This document shows positions 12,946-33,082 of a DNA stretch of 64,000 bases, piece after piece. A model generated the notes under the pieces. The model was given only the letters and a program-made list of their open reading frames with translations. It searched no databases and was not told where the DNA came from. A program made the translations under genes and the position numbers. The DNA is from a virus. The stretch's first letter is position 1, and each line of letters begins with the position of its first letter. Location of the stretch: IMG/VR virus record IMGVR_UViG_3300025711_000007, positions 1 to 64,000 of that record; one strand, written 5' to 3'.

Positions 12946-14015
12946 CCGCGATCCCGGAGCTCGACGCCGCCCTGCTGCGCGGCGACCAGTTGTGGTACGT
13001 CGCGCACCCGGTGCACCCTACAGAGGAGAAGCTGTTCGAGGCGCGCCAGATTGGGTACGAGATCGGCTACGAGCAGACGGAAGAAGAGTACCGCCGGATG
13101 ATCGTACGCGACAACGTCGCCGGCGGGAAGGCGTGGCTCCGGTGGCTCTCCGACAGGTACCCGGCGCTGACGTTCGTCGCCCCGTGGATCGCGTCGCTGG
13201 ACGGCGGGGGCGGGGACGACCTCGACCCGGAGCGCCGCGCGCGAGGGCTGCGCGACTGCCGGGTCACAATCCGCGCGTGCGCCGGGATGGTGCTCGTCGG
13301 TGGTCGGGTGTCGGCTGGGATGCGCGACGAGATGAGCTGCGCCGCGAGCGTCGTGGACCTGACGCATCTCGGGGAGAACCCTCCGGATACCGACTCGCAG
13401 GCCGCTCTGCGGCGCTCGCCGGACAGCCCGCGCGGGAGGTTGGTGGTCGTGACCGACGACTCGGTCGAGGTCGACGGCCACCTCCTGAAGCGGGTCACCC
13501 GCGCGCGGGTGAACGTCGCCGCCGGGAAGGTGACGACGGTGGACGTCACGCTGGCGGTCCCGCGCGGCGCGGTCGTCTTCAGCGGGATGGCCGAGGTCTC
13601 CTGCGGCGCCGAGCCGCCCGCCGCGCCGGTCCCGGACCAGCCTCCGCCCGTGGATCGTCCAGATCTCGTCCCTGTGTGGGACATGGTGGTCACCGACATG
13701 GTGGTGATGCGGGACGGGGACCCGCCGAGGTACGCGACCATGCGCGCCGACCGGGCGCGCATCAACCTGGTGATCGCCGACATGCTCGTGCGGGACCGCG
13801 TCGGTCGCGAGCGCTACGGGACCCCGCTGACGGCTTACAACGGGCGTGACCACATCGTCGACCTGTACCAGGAGCTGCTCGACGCCGCCGCGTACTGCAG
13901 GGCCGCGATCGTCGAGTCTGATCGACCTCCATTGACTAAGGTCTATCAGGACACACTCGAGCATCTCGTGGTCTTGAGAGGCTTGATCGGAGCGGTGGGA
14001 GACGTCGAGAGATGA
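12942..14015 (+). CDS. fusion: nucleoside 2-deoxyribosyltransferase-like domain plus all-alpha NTP pyrophosphatase (MazG-like) domain
   Basis: WYVAHP...VSAGMRDE; RDRVGRERYGTPLTAYNGRDHIVDLYQELLDAAAY. Confidence 0.65.
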   Translation: MTAIPELDAALLRGDQLWYVAHPVHPTEEKLFEARQIGYEIGYEQTEEEYRRMIVRDNVAGGKAWLRWLSDRYPALTFVAPWIASLDGGGGDDLDPERRARGLRDCRVTIRACAGMVLVGGRVSAGMRDEMSCAASVVDLTHLGENPPDTDSQAALRRSPDSPRGRLVVVTDDSVEVDGHLLKRVTRARVNVAAGKVTTVDVTLAVPRGAVVFSGMAEVSCGAEPPAAPVPDQPPPVDRPDLVPVWDMVVTDMVVMRDGDPPRYATMRADRARINLVIADMLVRDRVGRERYGTPLTAYNGRDHIVDLYQELLDAAAYCRAAIVESDRPPLTKVYQDTLEHLVVLRGLIGAVGDVER

Positions 14016-14767
14016 GCGTCCTCGTCGACAGGGGGATCCTGGACGCGATGGTCAGCGGCGCGATCGTCATCAGGCCGTTCGACCGCGCGTGCCTCGGGAC
14101 CAACAGCTACGACGTGCACCTCGCGCCGACGCTGCGCGTGTACAAGAGCGGGGTAGAGCGCGTCGACGTCGTCGGTGGCGGTTCTGAGATGATCGACCTC
14201 CTCGGTCCGCTCGACGTGCGCGCGCCGCGGGAGACGGTCGACGTCACGATCCCGGAAGAGGGGTTCGTCCTCGAGCCGGGAGAGCTCTACCTCGCGTCGA
14301 CGGTCGAGCACACCGAGTCCCGTGAGCACGTCCCTGTGCTCAACGGACGGTCCAGCATCGGGCGCCTCGGGCTCAGCATCCACGTGACCGCGGGCACCGG
14401 GGACGTCGGGTTCCGAGGGTGCTGGACGATGGAGCTGTTCGTCATCCGCCGGCTGCGCGTGTACGCAGGGATCCCCATCGGGCAGCTCCTGTGGTTCACG
14501 ACGGACAGCGCGCCGCTCGTCCCGTACGGAGACAAGGCGTCGGCGAAGTACGCCGACGCCGGGCCGCTCCCGATGGCGAGCATGCTGCACGCGGAGCTGA
14601 AGCCGGCGTGCAAGCACGTCCGGATCAAGACGGGCGGCCTTGTAACGACGATCAACCGGGCATGGTTGGTGGAGACCTGCCTAGATTGCGGAGCGACCCG
14701 GACCACGAACAGCCGGGGCTCCGACCCGAGCGCCTGGGCGACCGCCGGCGATGGAGAAGACGACTGA
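14012..14767 (+). CDS. dcd: dCTP deaminase with C-terminal Zn-ribbon extension
   Basis: SYDVHL, GRSSIGRLGL, AGTGDVGFRGCWTMEL, GQL. Confidence 0.92.
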   Translation: MSVLVDRGILDAMVSGAIVIRPFDRACLGTNSYDVHLAPTLRVYKSGVERVDVVGGGSEMIDLLGPLDVRAPRETVDVTIPEEGFVLEPGELYLASTVEHTESREHVPVLNGRSSIGRLGLSIHVTAGTGDVGFRGCWTMELFVIRRLRVYAGIPIGQLLWFTTDSAPLVPYGDKASAKYADAGPLPMASMLHAELKPACKHVRIKTGGLVTTINRAWLVETCLDCGATRTTNSRGSDPSAWATAGDGEDD

Positions 14768-15006
14768 TGGGTAAGCTCGACGGGTTCAGGCAGGTCACGC
14801 TGTACGTCAACCCCGAGCTGTACGAGCGCGTGCGGTGCTCGTCGTACAGCCTCGGCGAGGACATCTACGAGTTCGTGGACGAGGCCCTCGCGTCCGCCAT
14901 CGAGCGGCGGATCCCGAAGGCGGAGCAGCCCGCCATCAATTTGATGAGCCGCCAGAACATCAAGAACGGGAAGACTCGGCGACCTCGACGAGGACCACCT
15001 CGGTAG
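14767..15006 (+). CDS. ribbon-helix-helix-like protein
   Basis: RQVTLYVNPELYERVR...IYEFVDEAL; TGATG coupling. Confidence 0.7.
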   Translation: MGKLDGFRQVTLYVNPELYERVRCSSYSLGEDIYEFVDEALASAIERRIPKAEQPAINLMSRQNIKNGKTRRPRRGPPR

Positions 15007-15036
15007 CGTCTTCCGGCACGATGTGCAGCAGATGAC

Positions 15037-15270
15037 TCGACCGATGTCGTCGACGATGGATCTCTTGCGTGGCGCGGCGATGAGGTGCATACTTTCGAGC
15101 GGAAGGTGTGCCTCGCCGGTGGTTCCAGCACCGGATATCAAAAACGTAAAGCCCTACAGCGTTCCGATCGCGGAACACCTCCCATGTACAACGACGCCCT
15201 CGCCCTCCGGTCCGCAAGATCTCTTTGAGGGCGAGGGCGTCCATCGGCATTTTGAAGCGCCCTAGGCGCG
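15037..15270 (+). ncRNA. candidate structured non-coding RNA
   Basis: 15-bp perfect stem 15193-15207/15227-15241, hairpins 15075-15118 (with G-U pairs), 15116-15134, 15161-15176, closing helix 15054-58/15242-46, possible pseudoknot 15063-69/15213-19. Confidence 0.55.
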
Positions 15271-15298
15271 GGTGCTCTCATGCGTCGCAGGAGAACAC

Positions 15299-15439
15299 GT
15301 GGCGATAAAGGTAGCTGGAGCGAAAAAGAAGAAGAAGCGCGGCCTGATCCAGAGAGCGGGGAAGGCCGTGAAGAAGCTCGTCAAGCGGGCTCGCGGCAAG
15401 GCCGCGAAGAAGAAGGCCGGGACCAGCACGAGCGGCTGA
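15299..15439 (+). CDS. 46-aa Lys/Arg-rich basic peptide (not in ORF track)
   Basis: AGGAG RBS, GTG; MAIKVAGAKKKKKRGLIQRAGKAVKKLVKRARGKAAKKKAGTSTSG. Confidence 0.75.
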   Translation: MAIKVAGAKKKKKRGLIQRAGKAVKKLVKRARGKAAKKKAGTSTSG

Positions 15440-16179
15440 CTCCGCTGGCGGAGAGCTTGAATCTGCTCCGGGAGGTCCGGGCGAGCTCGCCCGGCGTGAT
15501 CATCGGGCTGAGCGGAGGCAAGGACTCGCTGGCGACGCTCGACCTGTGCGTGCGCGAGTTCGGCGCGGCCCGCGTGAGGGCGTTCCACATGTACCTCGTG
15601 AAGGGTCTCCGCTGCGTCGAGCGGACCCTGCGGTGGTGCGAGAGCCGGTACGGGGTCGCGGTCGAGGCGGTGCCGCACTGGACGCTCGCGAACGCGTACA
15701 AGTACGCCTCCTACATGCCGCACCGATCTCGGACCGACGGGTGGAGGGACACGCGCATGAGGGACATCGAGCAGGCGGTGCGCGCCAGGCTCGGCCCGTG
15801 GTGGATCGCGTACGGCCACCGCATGTGCGACAGCATCGAGCGGGTCGGCATGCTCTCCAGGAACGGAGGGCTGGACGCCGCCGGCCGCCGCGTCTACCCG
15901 CTGCGGGTGTGGAACGAGGCATCCGTGATGGCGTACCTGCGCGCGCGGAAGATCCCGCCGCCGCCCCGGCTGACGATCCTCAAGAGGTCGATGACGGGCG
16001 TCTCGTTCCAGGAGGACGTGCTGATCGCGATCCGCGACAGCTACCCGGACGACTTCGAGAAGATCGTCGAGAAGTTCCCGTACCTGCCGGCGAAGCTGGT
16101 CAGGTACGAGCTGAAGAGGAAGACATGGAAGCAGAGCACGTACGTCGACAAGTGGCGGACGTCTCTCAAGGACAGATGA
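15436..16179 (+). CDS. PAPS-reductase-family (PP-loop, DndC/IbrA-like) protein
   Basis: IIGLSGGKDSLATLDL PP-loop; GHRMCDSIER; YPLRVW; start uncertain (CTG 15436 or TTG 15457). Confidence 0.85.
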   Translation: MTPLAESLNLLREVRASSPGVIIGLSGGKDSLATLDLCVREFGAARVRAFHMYLVKGLRCVERTLRWCESRYGVAVEAVPHWTLANAYKYASYMPHRSRTDGWRDTRMRDIEQAVRARLGPWWIAYGHRMCDSIERVGMLSRNGGLDAAGRRVYPLRVWNEASVMAYLRARKIPPPPRLTILKRSMTGVSFQEDVLIAIRDSYPDDFEKIVEKFPYLPAKLVRYELKRKTWKQSTYVDKWRTSLKDR

Positions 16180-17144
16180 TGAAGAAGCAGGCGACAGGAG
16201 GCGGCAGCCTCCACCCAGCGCAGAAGTTCGTCGTCGCGCGCGTCCACCGCGAGAAGATCAAGAATGCGCCGTACAACCCGCGACAGATCGACGACCACGC
16301 GAGGAAGAAGCTCAGCAACAACATCAAGAAGAAGGGGTTGCTGGACGCGCTCGTCTGGAACAAGCGGACAGGTAACCTCGTGTCGGGGCACCAGCGGTTG
16401 AGCATCCTGGACGACCTCAGCAAGACGGGAGTCAGCTACGCGATAGACGTCGCGGTGGTCGACCTGTCGGAGCGCGAGGAGAAGGAGCAGAACCTGTTCT
16501 TCAACAACCCGAGCGCTCAAGGTGACTACGACGTCGATAAGCTCGGGAAGATGATAGTAAACGACGAAGTCGACTACAAGTTGTCGGGGTTCGACGACAT
16601 GGACCTGCAGATGCGGTTCGAGGGCACCGACTACGCGGTGACGATGTTCGACGACGACAAGGCGCCGCAGTCGGTGCAGGACGACCTGGAGCAGCTGGAG
16701 GAGATCCAGCGCATGAAGCGCGAGCGGAAGGCGCACCGCGACCGCGACCAGGACGCCAACGACCCGGAGTTCTACGCGGTGGTCGTGTTTCCGGACCGCG
16801 ACGCGCAGGGGCAGTTCATGGAGCGCGTCGGCATGGACAGGAACGCCCGCTACGTGGACGGGGCTCGCCTCCACACGTCGCTGGAGGCGGCGAAGCCGCG
16901 GACCAAGACGTACGACGGCGAGCCGTTCGAGGAGATGACGTTCTGGGTCGCCAGGGACCAGAAGCAGGTGATCGAGGACGAGCTGACGCGCATCGCGGCG
17001 CTGATGCGAGGGAAGAACCTGCGGGGCCGCGCGCTGGAGGCGATGGCGGTGATATCGTCGCAGACGTCGACGGACAACATCATGGGTGAGGAGCCGGAAG
17101 CTCGACCCGAACCCAAGCCGAGGAAGAGGAGATCAGATGCCTGA
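16176..17144 (+). CDS. ParB/sulfiredoxin N-terminal domain protein
   Basis: APYNPRQI, LVWNKRTGNLVSGHQRL, NNPSAQGDYDVDKL. Confidence 0.88.
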   Translation: MMKKQATGGGSLHPAQKFVVARVHREKIKNAPYNPRQIDDHARKKLSNNIKKKGLLDALVWNKRTGNLVSGHQRLSILDDLSKTGVSYAIDVAVVDLSEREEKEQNLFFNNPSAQGDYDVDKLGKMIVNDEVDYKLSGFDDMDLQMRFEGTDYAVTMFDDDKAPQSVQDDLEQLEEIQRMKRERKAHRDRDQDANDPEFYAVVVFPDRDAQGQFMERVGMDRNARYVDGARLHTSLEAAKPRTKTYDGEPFEEMTFWVARDQKQVIEDELTRIAALMRGKNLRGRALEAMAVISSQTSTDNIMGEEPEARPEPKPRKRRSDA

Positions 17145-17463
17145 AGACGTCGAGGATCACGTGGCGATGATGTTCCACGGGCTCGTGTCCGACCTCCAGC
17201 ATAACGACGTCGCGGCGTTCGAGCGGGAGCAGGCGCGCCAGGCCGCCGCGCGCGCCGAGCTGCGCAAGCGGACCCCGAATCAGGGCCTCAACGCGGGCGA
17301 GCTGCTGAAGCAGCTCGACGGTGACCCCGCGGCGGCGGACCGCCGGGTCCAGAGCGAACTGGACCGCATCGACCGCGAGTCCAAGGCAGCCGCGGAGAAG
17401 AACAAGAGCAAGGTCGCGCCGTTGCCAGAAGGGCACTTCCCACCCCCGCCCGAGAGCGAGTAG
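17137..17463 (+). CDS. hypothetical helical protein
   Basis: GAGGAG RBS, MPEDVEDH... Confidence 0.7.
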   Translation: MPEDVEDHVAMMFHGLVSDLQHNDVAAFEREQARQAAARAELRKRTPNQGLNAGELLKQLDGDPAAADRRVQSELDRIDRESKAAAEKNKSKVAPLPEGHFPPPPESE

Positions 17464-17472
17464 GCTGTCGCG

Positions 17473-17640
17473 ATGAAGCCGCAGCGCTACACGTGCTCTC
17501 AGTGCGGGTGCTCTTGGCTCGCTGCCGCCGGCCAGGGCGCTCGGTGCCCCAACGGGTGCGACGTCGTCGCGAAATCGGAGGGCGAGTTCACGATGAAGAC
17601 GTTCCAGGGCGGCGACGACCTGAAGAAGGGGCTCCGCTGA
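17473..17640 (+). CDS. small Zn-ribbon protein (not in ORF track)
   Basis: MKPQRYTCSQCG...RCPNGC...; TAGGCT-6-ATG. Confidence 0.65.
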   Translation: MKPQRYTCSQCGCSWLAAAGQGARCPNGCDVVAKSEGEFTMKTFQGGDDLKKGLR

Positions 17641-17644
17641 AGCC

Positions 17645-18076
17645 GTGCGGGTGTTCGGGACCACGCGGATGATCTGCACGCTGGACGCCGACCAGCTGCA
17701 GAAGGCGTTCGACCAGGAGGTGACGTTCGACGACACCGACCCGGCCACGGCGGCGCACACCCAGTCGGGTTTCGTCACGCTCGCCGCCTCCGCGTCGAGC
17801 CAGCCGTTCTCGTTCGGCAGCGTCACCGCGGCGTCGACGGTCCTGGTGATCGCGTACGACCCGGTCCAGGTGCAGCTCAACGGCAACGCCGCGCCGCTCG
17901 TCGACGTTACTCCGGTGCCGGCGAGCGCCGCGACCGCGGTCACCTCGGTCTACCAGCGGCAGGACCAGCCGGGGCACCTGAGCCTGCGCGGCAAGGTCAC
18001 GAGCCTCCACCTGACCAACCCGAGCAGCACGGAGACGGCTCGCGTGTTCGTCGCCGTCGTGGGCGACGCGGCGTAG
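17645..18076 (+). CDS. hypothetical beta-rich virion-like protein
   Basis: Thr/Val/Ala-rich ORF, GC3-rich. Confidence 0.7.
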   Translation: MRVFGTTRMICTLDADQLQKAFDQEVTFDDTDPATAAHTQSGFVTLAASASSQPFSFGSVTAASTVLVIAYDPVQVQLNGNAAPLVDVTPVPASAATAVTSVYQRQDQPGHLSLRGKVTSLHLTNPSSTETARVFVAVVGDAA

Positions 18077-18874: not shown

Positions 18875-20611
18875 ATGGTCGACGAGCAGGTGGTCGCCTC
18901 GCAGCAGGCTGCGCTGCCGGCTGACATCCAGAAGGCGGTCGCGGCGGCGTTCGAGGAACTCCGCGAGCGGGCGTGGTCGAACGAGTCTGCGGTGGCGAAG
19001 GCCAGCGCCGCGCCGAACGACAACCAGCCGAAGTCGTGGTTCGCCGACCCGTTCGCGCTGCTGGACTCGGTCGGCATGGGGTACCGCAACGCGCCGACGT
19101 ACCTGACGTACGACACCCTGCGCCAGGTGGCCGAGCGCGACACCTACGTCGCGCCGATCATATTGACGCGGATCGACCAGATCAACACGTTCGCTAGGCT
19201 GCAGCCGAACAAGTATTCCGTCGGGTTCTTGATTCGCCCGCGATTCGGCGACAAGAAGCGCATGTTGTCGCGCAGCGAGAAGGAGCGGACCGAGCACCTG
19301 GCGATGATGGTGCTCAACACGGGGATCGAGTACAACCTCGGCCGCGACGGGCTCAGGCAGTTCATATCGAAGTTCGTGCGCGACTCGCTGACCTATGACC
19401 AGGGGTGCTTCGAGAGCATCCGAACGCGGTCCGGAGGTGTCCACTCGTTCCACGCGGTGGACAGCGCGACGATCCGGACGACGACCCCGAAGCAGATGAA
19501 GGGGACACCTCCCCGGATCAACGACCTCAAGAAGGACATCCGCTACGTCCAGGTCATCAACTCGTCGATCACGGCGGAGTTCACCATCGACGAGATGGCG
19601 TTCTGCGTCCGCAACCCGAGGTCGAACGTCAAGACGTACGGGTACGGGCTGCCCGAGATCGAGACGCTGATAACGACGATCACCAGCCACCTGTGGGCCG
19701 AGGAGTGGAACCGCCGGATGTTCTCGCAGGGGAGCACCGTGAAGGGTTTGCTCAACGTCAAGGGCAACTTGCCTCCCGTCCAGTTCGAGGCGTTCAAGCG
19801 GATGTGGCACTCGCAGGTCGCGGGGGTCCAGAACGCGTGGAAGACACCGATGCTCAACTCGGAGGAGGTGCAGTGGGTCCCGCTGCAGCTCAGCAACACC
19901 GAGATGGGCTACCAGATGTGGATGGACTACCTCTGCAAGATCACCTGCGCGTTGTTCCGGATCGACCCGGCTGAGATTAACTTCGACCTTCGGGGCGGCG
20001 TGGGCGCGGCGCCGGTGTTCATGTCCACGAACGAGGCGCAGCAGAAGGCGAGCAAGGATCGCGGACTGCAGCCGCTGCTCGACTTCGTCGCGGACGCCAT
20101 CAATCGTCACATCGTCTGGAAGATCGACCCGCGATTCGAGTTCGCGTTCATCGGCCTCGACGCGAAGACCGAGGAGCAGGCCATGCAGCTCCGCCAGCAG
20201 CAGGCCCAGTCGCACCTCAAGTTGAACGAGGTGCGCGCGATGGACGACCTGCCGCCTGTCGAGTACGGCGACGTCGTGCTCAACCCGGTCTACATCGGGT
20301 ATCGGACCCAGATGATGATGGCACAGCAGCAAGCGCAGCAGCCGGGGCAGCCAGGTCAGCCCGGCCAAGACGGGCCGCCGCCCCGGTTCACGCAGCCGCC
20401 GGGGGACGAGGAGGAGCACGGCGCTGACCAGATCCGGCAGTTCGCCGAGGACAAGCCGGGCCGGGCGGCGTCTTCCGACGAGGGGTCCGGTCCGTCTCCG
20501 CGCGTGCTGTCGCGCCTGCACATCGACGACTGGGACTCCGTGGTCAGCCACTCGATCAGGAGCGACGACCTCGCGAAGGCCGAGGTGTACGACGTCATCG
20601 ACATCGACTAG
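18875..20611 (+). CDS. portal protein (SPO1/Twort-like)
   Basis: FVRDSLTYDQGCFE, VRNPRS...YGYGLPEIE, FSQGSTVKGLL, IDPAEINF, SKDRGLQPLL. Confidence 0.93.
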   Translation: MVDEQVVASQQAALPADIQKAVAAAFEELRERAWSNESAVAKASAAPNDNQPKSWFADPFALLDSVGMGYRNAPTYLTYDTLRQVAERDTYVAPIILTRIDQINTFARLQPNKYSVGFLIRPRFGDKKRMLSRSEKERTEHLAMMVLNTGIEYNLGRDGLRQFISKFVRDSLTYDQGCFESIRTRSGGVHSFHAVDSATIRTTTPKQMKGTPPRINDLKKDIRYVQVINSSITAEFTIDEMAFCVRNPRSNVKTYGYGLPEIETLITTITSHLWAEEWNRRMFSQGSTVKGLLNVKGNLPPVQFEAFKRMWHSQVAGVQNAWKTPMLNSEEVQWVPLQLSNTEMGYQMWMDYLCKITCALFRIDPAEINFDLRGGVGAAPVFMSTNEAQQKASKDRGLQPLLDFVADAINRHIVWKIDPRFEFAFIGLDAKTEEQAMQLRQQQAQSHLKLNEVRAMDDLPPVEYGDVVLNPVYIGYRTQMMMAQQQAQQPGQPGQPGQDGPPPRFTQPPGDEEEHGADQIRQFAEDKPGRAASSDEGSGPSPRVLSRLHIDDWDSVVSHSIRSDDLAKAEVYDVIDID

Positions 20612-32552: not shown

Positions 32553-32566
32553 TATCATCGTCTGCG

Positions 32567-33082
32567 ATGGTGATCGCAGACGATGATAAAGATGATAAGC
32601 CGGTGACGTTGTTGGTCCGTCAGTTGACCGACCGGATCCGCCGGCGCGGGTCCGACCAGCTGGTCAACTTGCCGATCGTGGACGGGATCGACATCGGCGA
32701 CGTGTACCCCGTCTGCGACGTCCTCCCGCAGGACCCGACCGACGAGCAGTTCGACGACCTCGCCGTCCGGGCGTCCTCCTTCATGGAGGACGTCCACCGG
32801 CTGCACGTCGAGCAGCGGGCGGCGCGCGGCGACTCGATCGCGGCGGCGTGCGTGCCTCTCAGCATACCCATCTTCCACCGAGGACGTCTCCGGGAGGCCA
32901 AGGCGGCGGACGCGGCGCCGCAGCAGATGGCGAGCATCAAGGAGCGGGAGACGCTCTGCATATTCCACTTGCGCGTCCCGCTGTGGCGCGGGTACACGTG
33001 GGCCGGGCAGGCCGCGGCGATCGACGTCGTCGCTCGCCGGCACGGTCTCCGCTGCGTTGACCAGGGCCGCATCCCCGAGTAG
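32567..33082 (+). CDS. hypothetical protein with own promoter (moron-like)
   Basis: TCGACA-17-TATCAT-8-ATG. Confidence 0.6.
   Translation: MVIADDDKDDKPVTLLVRQLTDRIRRRGSDQLVNLPIVDGIDIGDVYPVCDVLPQDPTDEQFDDLAVRASSFMEDVHRLHVEQRAARGDSIAAACVPLSIPIFHRGRLREAKAADAAPQQMASIKERETLCIFHLRVPLWRGYTWAGQAAAIDVVARRHGLRCVDQGRIPE

Follow-up and report, generated by a model that had tools for sequence, protein, structure and literature searches.

The first 64 kb (hereafter the window) of a 79.8-kb viral contig from IMG/VR (IMGVR_UViG_3300025711_000007; 68% GC, estimated completeness 68%) contain a non-coding gap between a small conserved gene, orf79, and a gene encoding a basic peptide. A preliminary description of this gene-dense sequence had reported a gap of ~290 nt at this place, and its extent is confirmed at 292 nt (Table 1). 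Downstream of the gap, the peptide gene is followed by genes for a PP-loop ATP pyrophosphatase of the PAPS-reductase-like type and for a protein of the ParB/sulfiredoxin (Srx) fold. The gap was previously interpreted as a structured plus-strand RNA that may serve these three proteins as substrate, scaffold or regulator. Here, we show that the gap is due to an insertion of ~265 nt that is absent from nine syntenic relatives, and that its folding signal stems from a single perfect hairpin, for which we propose a role in cis.

Table 1 Features of the orf79-ParB region (positions in the window).
Feature	Position	Strand	Remarks
dCTP-deaminase-like gene	14012-14767	+	Pfam DCD 8e-32
orf79, small conserved 79-aa protein upstream of the gap	14767-15006	+	GC content at third codon positions (GC3) ~1.0
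Non-coding gap, 292 nt, from orf79 to the basic-peptide gene	15007-15298		orf79 stop 15004-15006; peptide GTG 15299
Lineage-specific insertion, ~265 nt	~15010-15273		Bounds approximate, inferred from the relatives' junctions
Three small hairpins and A-rich spacer	15075-15176	+	Present; block not above shuffles
Perfect 15-bp GC-rich hairpin	15193-15241	+	Arms 15193-15207/15227-15241; 19-nt loop
Shine-Dalgarno sequence AGGAGA of the peptide gene	15289-15294	+	Read from the sequence
46-aa lysine/arginine (K/R)-rich protein with small-residue, Gly-ended tail ...AGTSTSG	15299-15439	+	GC3
PP-loop ATP pyrophosphatase, PAPS-reductase-like, 247 aa	15436-16179	+	SGGKDS; Pfam PF01507
ParB/Srx-fold protein, 322 aa	16176-17144	+	ATGA overlap with the PP-loop gene
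orf108, conserved fourth gene	17137-17463	+	8-nt overlap with the ParB stop

To place the gap in context, we collected ~35 related loci on viral and metagenome contigs using its ParB and PP-loop proteins as queries, and compared the junction in nine syntenic relatives whose PP-loop proteins are 56-78% identical to that of the window phage. All nine keep the order dCTP deaminase, orf79, basic peptide, PP-loop protein, ParB and orf108, and in them 26-66 nt separate the orf79 stop from the peptide start, compared with 292 nt here. The flanks in the window, TAGCGT... and ...CTCATGCGTCGCAGGAG, align with TGACGTATCATGCG(C/T)CGGAGGA of the relatives, and the right flank ...CTCATGCGTCGCAGGAGAAC together with the left TAGCGT... 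matches their continuous junction TGACGTATCATGCGCCGGAGGAAG and its variants. Since the flanks align to an uninterrupted junction in the relatives, the extra sequence represents an insertion. No sequence resembling it was found in the 35 related loci. Searching the whole 79.8-kb phage genome with the gap returned the self-match only, and short-word blastn within the window gave only 11-12-mers. Likewise, nothing similar to the gap was obtained by blastn of positions 14000-18000 against 50,697 phage records, and exact patterns taken from different parts of the gap had 0 matches in three scans of viral contigs. When 596 Gb of prokaryote genomes were scanned for the 12-bp arms of the hairpin stem, 25 matches were obtained in unrelated high-GC bacteria, none similar to the insert outside the hairpin, which indicates generic GC hairpins. 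A miniature inverted-repeat transposable element or other mobile element was rejected as the source of the insert, as there are no terminal inverted repeats and no convincing target duplication.

This comparison bears directly on the proposed partnership between RNA and proteins. Nine relatives keep the three genes without the insert; therefore, the RNA is not a conserved partner and the module works without it. The preliminary description had itself named a lack of covariation at homologous loci as evidence against its proposal; the region is wholly missing from these loci, which leaves no sequence for covariation, and the RNA hypothesis fails by its own standard. The suggestion that the RNA is a substrate or scaffold of the proteins does not hold in view of the nine syntenic relatives, which keep the trio with only 26-66 nt at the junction. 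The suggested regulatory function survives in part: the RNA is not a conserved partner of the trio, but a cis-regulatory role of the gap in this one phage is possible.

Translation of the gap, another outcome that the preliminary description had said would speak against an RNA, is the least probable of the explanations considered here. Open frames cover most of the insert (an 80-aa open reading frame (ORF) at 15023-15265 and a minus-strand 96-aa ORF at 14960-15250), but by our own estimate an 80-codon frame is expected in about one third of random 292-nt stretches of 60% GC read in six frames. The gap has no codon-position GC signal, whereas genuine genes here reach a GC3 of ~0.9 and the neighbouring genes 0.9-1.0, and its overall GC content is 0.61 compared with 0.68 for the genome. 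The 80-aa ORF had zero homologues among 5.8 billion proteins and no PHROG match, the 96-aa ORF had no Pfam match, and no Shine-Dalgarno sequence precedes the possible starts of the gap ORFs. Given this lack of homologues, family matches and GC3 bias, a protein-coding gap was rejected.

The hairpins, A-rich stretch, closing helix and complementary 7-mers listed in the preliminary description are all present in the gap; the structural claim built on them held only in part. The 15-bp hairpin, in which 12 of the 15 pairs are G-C, folds on its own with -35.7 kcal/mol (z -5.05) and ranks second by length among the perfect hairpins of the window. The gap as a whole folds with -124.7 kcal/mol, which is better than expected from dinucleotide-shuffled sequences on the plus strand (z -3.07) and less so on the minus strand (z -1.90), and by GC-adjusted folding energy the 292-nt segment starting at 15039 ranks third among 437 such segments. 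However, the 184 nt upstream of the 15-bp hairpin (15007-15190) have a z of -0.02, with 87 of 200 shuffles folding equally well, and the 113-nt core containing the three small hairpins (15070-15182) reaches a z of -1.44 (17/200 shuffles). These small hairpins (15075-15118, with two G-U pairs, 15116-15134 and 15161-15176) score well only if excised singly, which is a selection effect. The candidate closing helix CGATG/CATCG (15054-58/15242-46) and the candidate pseudoknot arms TCTTGCG (at 15063) and CGCAAGA (at 15213) fare no better. Excluding the nine pairs inside the 15-bp stem, the gap contains five complementary 7-mer pairs compared with 3.6 +/- 2.5 in shuffles, which puts pseudoknot and 5-bp closing helix alike at chance level. 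The folding signal of the gap thus stems from a single element, the 15-bp hairpin. A strong plus-strand hairpin in a non-coding gap is what remains of the structured RNA; the multi-hairpin architecture is at chance level and a multi-domain non-coding RNA is not supported.

Searches for known RNA families and signals were likewise negative. Rfam at gathering thresholds gave 0 matches in the whole window, and an E-value scan of 14700-15600 returned only chance-level matches, the best scoring 13-16 bits against thresholds of 38-245; the cmscan suggested in the preliminary description as a check thus matched no family to the gap. No tRNA or tmRNA was found in the gap, and a T-loop motif scan of the window produced one match, at chance level and inside a gene. 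A consensus scan detected no sigma-70-like promoter in the gap. The 15-bp hairpin is followed by CAUCGGCAUUUUG, and the first UUUU starts 10 nt past the stem. The longest perfect hairpin of the window is located elsewhere, at 32553-32588 (16 bp, 4-nt loop, -27.1 kcal/mol, z -7.9). It begins at the first base past the stop codon of the capsid gene, lacks a U-tract, and is likely to serve as a U-less terminator or to stabilise RNA. As both this hairpin and the 15-bp hairpin are U-less and located at gene ends, long hairpins of this kind appear to be habitual in this phage, at places where a terminator or a protector of RNA ends would be expected.

The genes on either side place the insertion at a change of operon. 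The upstream protein orf79 is conserved in nine relatives (46-63% identity) and is probably a ribbon-helix-helix-type regulator, judging from its sequence pattern; its profile match, to NCBIfam PrgO, is weak (E 0.01). At the other end of the module, the product of orf108 is 50-69% identical in close relatives and ~30% in a relative of 42% GC, and has no match in Pfam or PHROG. Three small ORFs follow orf108 and precede the portal gene (18875-20611), which lies 1.7 kb downstream of the module, with head protease and capsid genes further downstream of the portal. No large terminase was recognised on the 68%-complete contig: a search for Terminase_6N found nothing, and none of the large ORFs beyond the portal gene matches Pfam or PHROG. 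The junction between orf79 and the peptide gene is an operon boundary, with nucleotide-metabolism genes and a small regulator upstream and a string of portal, protease and capsid genes downstream. Most relatives among L007-L014 and L036 carry a TAnnnT hexamer (TATGAT, TATCAT, TATGCT, TACGAT, TACAGT or TAGGAT) at a constant position after the orf79 stop, ~10-20 nt before the Shine-Dalgarno sequence of the peptide gene, the exception being L009 with only TAGGTC. Judged by sequence and position, this hexamer may be a -10 element of the late operon. It is interrupted by the insertion in the window, with TAGCGT on the left (15004-15009) and TCTCAT on the right (15276-15281).

Non-coding sequences of other kinds occur at the same junction in other clades. 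In locus L022, the gap before the peptide gene (1750-1925) contains a long palindrome, ATTATCATCGCG...CGCGATGATAAT. This is followed by a canonical terminator, GGGCCCCC-ACGCA-GGGGGCC with TTTTTT after it, directly before the ribosome-binding site of the peptide gene. A clade of phages of ~52% GC (L017-L021, L071 and L072) has a conserved non-coding unit of ~290 nt directly upstream of the module (L017:2456-2745), comprising a TATAAT box, a long 5' hairpin, a tRNA-like 3' end and a stem with a U7 terminator, and folding with a z of -4.31. The tRNA-like end consists of a 7-bp acceptor (GGGAUAG/CUAUCCC) and a T-arm (GAGGG-UUCGAGU-CCUUC), followed by CCA. Neither ARAGORN nor Rfam recognised this unit, and it shares no sequence with the gap in the window. 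Together, these loci show that this operon boundary repeatedly accepts RNA or terminator inserts.

The three genes described downstream of the gap, encoding the K/R-rich 46-aa peptide, the SGGKDS PP-loop protein and the ParB/Srx protein, are real and coupled through CTGA and ATGA overlaps. The peptide frame has a GC3 of 0.93 compared with 0.43-0.60 in the overlapping frame, and the relatives carry an equivalent of its Shine-Dalgarno sequence (CGCAGGAGA or GGAGGA) before the peptide start. All high-GC (close) relatives and one relative of 42% GC keep the peptide's position, composition and tail, and its composition is conserved in clades whose PP-loop proteins are only 28-42% identical. Database gene calls often start the PP-loop gene 50-70 codons early, in the frame that overlaps the peptide gene (15280-15457 in the window), giving products of 299-320 aa and leaving the peptide unannotated (P0001, P0007, P0008, P0014, P0016 and others). 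These wrong-frame upstream starts explain why the peptide gene is hidden in annotations. A fusion of peptide and PP-loop protein by -1 frameshifting was considered, since the PP-loop frame stays open upstream; it was rejected because GC3 is poor in this upstream frame, there is no evident slippery site, and the two genes are separate in the low-GC relative.

The PP-loop protein matches PF01507 with 28.3 bits (cut-off 22.5) and phrog_424 with an E-value of 7e-14. Its start is most likely the CTG at 15436, which overlaps the peptide TGA, with TTG 15457 as the alternative; neither the ATG at 15280 given in databases nor a codon further downstream was favoured in comparison. The sequence TPLAE is conserved in the frame of CTG 15436, and the corresponding place holds GTGA in L007 and ATG-Thr in the low-GC L015. 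An AlphaFold2 model (predicted local distance difference test score 88) ends in a helical, partly disordered tail, and its Foldseek matches include TtuA, TilS, LarE, NcsA, FAD synthase and CysD at a template modelling (TM) score of ~0.5, which is the level of the generic fold. CysH has a conserved C-terminal catalytic cysteine. DndC binds a 4Fe-4S cluster on three cysteines and has a cysteine dyad in addition (PMC10853773). In an alignment of 40 PP-loop homologues no cysteine is invariant or nearly so, which excludes sulfur chemistry of the CysH or DndC type and leaves plain adenylation or ligation, as in TilS, NAD synthetase or QueC.

The ParB/Srx fold of the third protein is confirmed by its structural model, in which the N-terminal 165 residues have CTP/CDP-bound ParB, Noc, KorB and sulfiredoxin as top Foldseek matches (E down to 6e-7). 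At the sequence level, the protein matches phrog_9353 (1e-60), phrog_620 (1e-22), phrog_498 and the N-terminal part of the PADLOC model MTase_II, and has invariant NPR (N34-P35-R36) and GHQR (G71-H72-Q73-R74) motifs, in keeping with the NTP-binding GxxR box of the superfamily. Pfam ParB_N remains below its cut-off (15.7 vs 26.3 bits), and among NCBIfam and Pfam models only Noc gives a match, which is weak. A clade-specific C-terminal extension of ~85 residues (16890-17144, residues ~240-322; FWVA.DQK..I..E..RI..L..GKN.RGRALE.MA) ends K/R-rich and is modelled with low confidence; distant clades, whose ParB proteins are shorter, lack it. The same ParB domain type is also found fused to phage DNA methyltransferases (phrog_498, PADLOC MTase_II), which points to DNA rather than RNA as target. 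A nucleic-acid-directed function of the trio, as previously suggested, is plausible. We hypothesise that the module performs an ATP-dependent, adenylation-type reaction on phage DNA, reached via the ParB protein, in which the peptide could be a partner or second substrate.

The window locus, in which a small basic Gly-tailed ORF is coupled to a PP-loop gene and followed by ParB ahead of head and packaging genes, belongs to a widely conserved, translationally coupled phage module that is already known from cultured phages. Conservation extends to 23% identity, in a Riemerella phage with its own 44-aa basic ORF upstream. In Riemerella phage vB_RanS_PT03 (MZ995504.1; L067:2645-3490), the trio lies just before a methylase and a terminase gene. 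The peptide has its positional counterpart there in a 44-aa basic ORF annotated as 'lambda NinG family protein'. The next gene encodes the PP-loop homologue (BLASTP 3e-22), with the degenerate motif SANGKDS, and is annotated as 'hypothetical protein'; a ParB-like gene completes the trio. Downstream of the ParB-like gene lies another 'PAPS reductase family' gene, which is shorter. Pairs annotated as 'PAPS reductase family protein' and 'ParB-like nuclease' precede packaging genes in the Riemerella RAP44 group and in Lactobacillus phage JNU_P7. They agree with the window in homologous proteins (ParB tblastn 1e-29 to 1e-33; PP-loop BLASTP 3e-22), gene order and late position next to packaging and head genes, whereas the window phage differs in the 292-nt hairpin-bearing gap before the module and in the ParB C-terminal extension. 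No published study assigning a function to the phage PP-loop/ParB pair was found in a literature search.

Parallels with two bacterial systems had been drawn for this pair. That with DndB and DndC extends to the combination of a ParB-superfamily protein and a PAPS-reductase-like PP-loop ATP pyrophosphatase. It breaks down in detail, as the DndC cysteines are not conserved in the 40 homologues, no DndC model is among the NCBIfam matches at E<=0.1, and no DndA, DndD or DndE partner was seen in the window neighbourhood. IbrA and IbrB, E. coli prophage co-activators, are a PAPS-reductase-like and a ParB-like protein encoded together in prophage contexts. This similar protein pair differs from that of the window in gene order and in the small basic ORF, and no match specific to DUF3440 or to the NCBIfam IbrA or IbrB models was obtained (only PF01507 and NAD_synthase for the PP-loop protein). 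A further point of comparison is offered by QatC-QatB and Cap9-CdnD, in which QueC-like PP-loop enzymes take a protein terminus as second substrate (PMC13376578). These pairs resemble the module in that a PP-loop enzyme is accompanied by a partner protein whose flexible Gly end could reach the active site; they differ in being QueC-like rather than PAPS-reductase-like and in using an N-terminal Gly2, unlike the C-terminal small-residue, Gly-ended tail found here. They set a precedent for conjugation chemistry on peptides, and by analogy it is reasonable to regard the peptide as a candidate substrate of the PP-loop enzyme.

Based on these results, we favour the explanation that the gap is a lineage-private insertion of ~265 nt and not a conserved RNA part of the module, with the 15-bp hairpin probably acting as a cis-acting terminator or attenuator. 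The insertion would have landed in the short junction between the early, nucleotide-metabolism genes and the operon leading to the portal and head genes, where the hairpin may terminate or attenuate read-through from upstream or shield the end of an RNA; a similar action is probable for the hairpin that directly follows the capsid gene. We assign the 15-bp hairpin a probable role in cis, in termination, attenuation or stabilisation, because the junction is an operon boundary, the capsid-end hairpin is also U-less and L022 has a terminator at the same place. Terminators and attenuators at early/late boundaries are familiar from phages, as in the tR' leader of lambda, and U-poor hairpin terminators are found in high-GC bacteria. 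The window hairpin has in common with these a very stable, GC-rich stem in a non-coding leader just before a late/packaging operon; it differs in its 19-nt loop, its short and displaced U-run and its absence from relatives, and no antiterminator was identified. Several observations weigh against this explanation. A canonical terminator scan of the gap was negative, as the hairpin has the GC-rich stem of such a terminator but neither a short loop nor an adjoining U-tract (the loop measures 19 nt and the U-run comes 10 nt after the stem). Closer relatives, with PP-loop proteins 79-84% identical (P0002-P0005, P0011 and P0012), lie outside the junction comparison, and might carry the insertion too, as members of a narrow sub-clade. 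Close relatives have no hairpin of any kind at the junction, and the element is thus dispensable for the module and might be functionless. Lastly, the better fold of the plus strand and the G-U pairs in 15075-15118 would fit a functional plus-strand RNA.

The main rival to a terminator or attenuator is a private small RNA, in which case the insert would be an independent, moron-like gene with a promoter of its own, giving an RNA of ~150-250 nt that ends at the 15-bp hairpin and UUUU and whose function has little or nothing to do with the operon. We regard this as unlikely. The strand preference and the presence of CAUCGGCAUUUUG right after the hairpin agree with it, as does the independent ~290-nt RNA of the L017 clade, with its TATAAT box, stem and U7 and its z of -4.31, at the same junction. 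However, the gap has no sigma-70-like promoter, the sequence before the hairpin folds no better than shuffles, covariation is precluded by the lack of any homologue, and the insert is unrelated in sequence to the L017 RNA and to all Rfam families. Slightly less probable again is a functionless filler, either a decayed gene or a remnant of illegitimate recombination, with the hairpin as an accidental palindrome. Such an origin would account for an orphan sequence of lower GC content than the genome and without coding phase that relatives manage without, but it leaves a perfect, GC-rich 15-bp palindrome, the second longest in 64 kb, to have arisen by accident at an intergenic operon boundary, and none of the terminal repeats or duplications of mobile elements were seen.

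Explanations that connect the insert with the proteins are less probable still. Since a structured RNA occurs at the same junction in the L017 clade, we retain a small probability that the module deals with structured RNAs. It is improbable, though conceivable, that the insert is a phage-private small RNA that is the target or controller of the module, and that the RNAs preceding the module are recurrent, non-homologous clients of a TilS/TtuA-like enzyme; the basic Gly-tailed peptide would then be an RNA/DNA-binding partner or a second substrate, a combination to which the same low probability applies jointly. The original proposal, in which the gap RNA is substrate, scaffold or trans-partner of the peptide, PP-loop and ParB proteins, is in our assessment very improbable. 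It draws on the position of the gap next to the three genes, the very basic peptide, the tRNA-modifying enzymes TtuA, TilS and NcsA among the nearest solved PP-loop structures, and the tRNA-like RNA that precedes the module in one distant clade. However, those structural matches represent the generic PP-loop fold (TM ~0.5), the multi-hairpin architecture and pseudoknot are at chance level, and the ParB type, being fused to DNA methyltransferases elsewhere, points to DNA. Moreover, the module is present in at least nine close and many distant phages without such an RNA at this place.

A conserved partner RNA would have been the first substrate clue for the widespread phage pair of PAPS-reductase-like and ParB proteins, but the insert is not a conserved partner. 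The focus therefore shifts to the parts that are conserved, namely the Gly-tailed basic protein, the Cys-less PP-loop enzyme and the ParB/Srx domain, of a type also fused to DNA methylases. Because the module is present in cultured Riemerella phages, its function is testable at the bench, while the gap itself illustrates how phage operon boundaries pick up private regulatory or RNA inserts.

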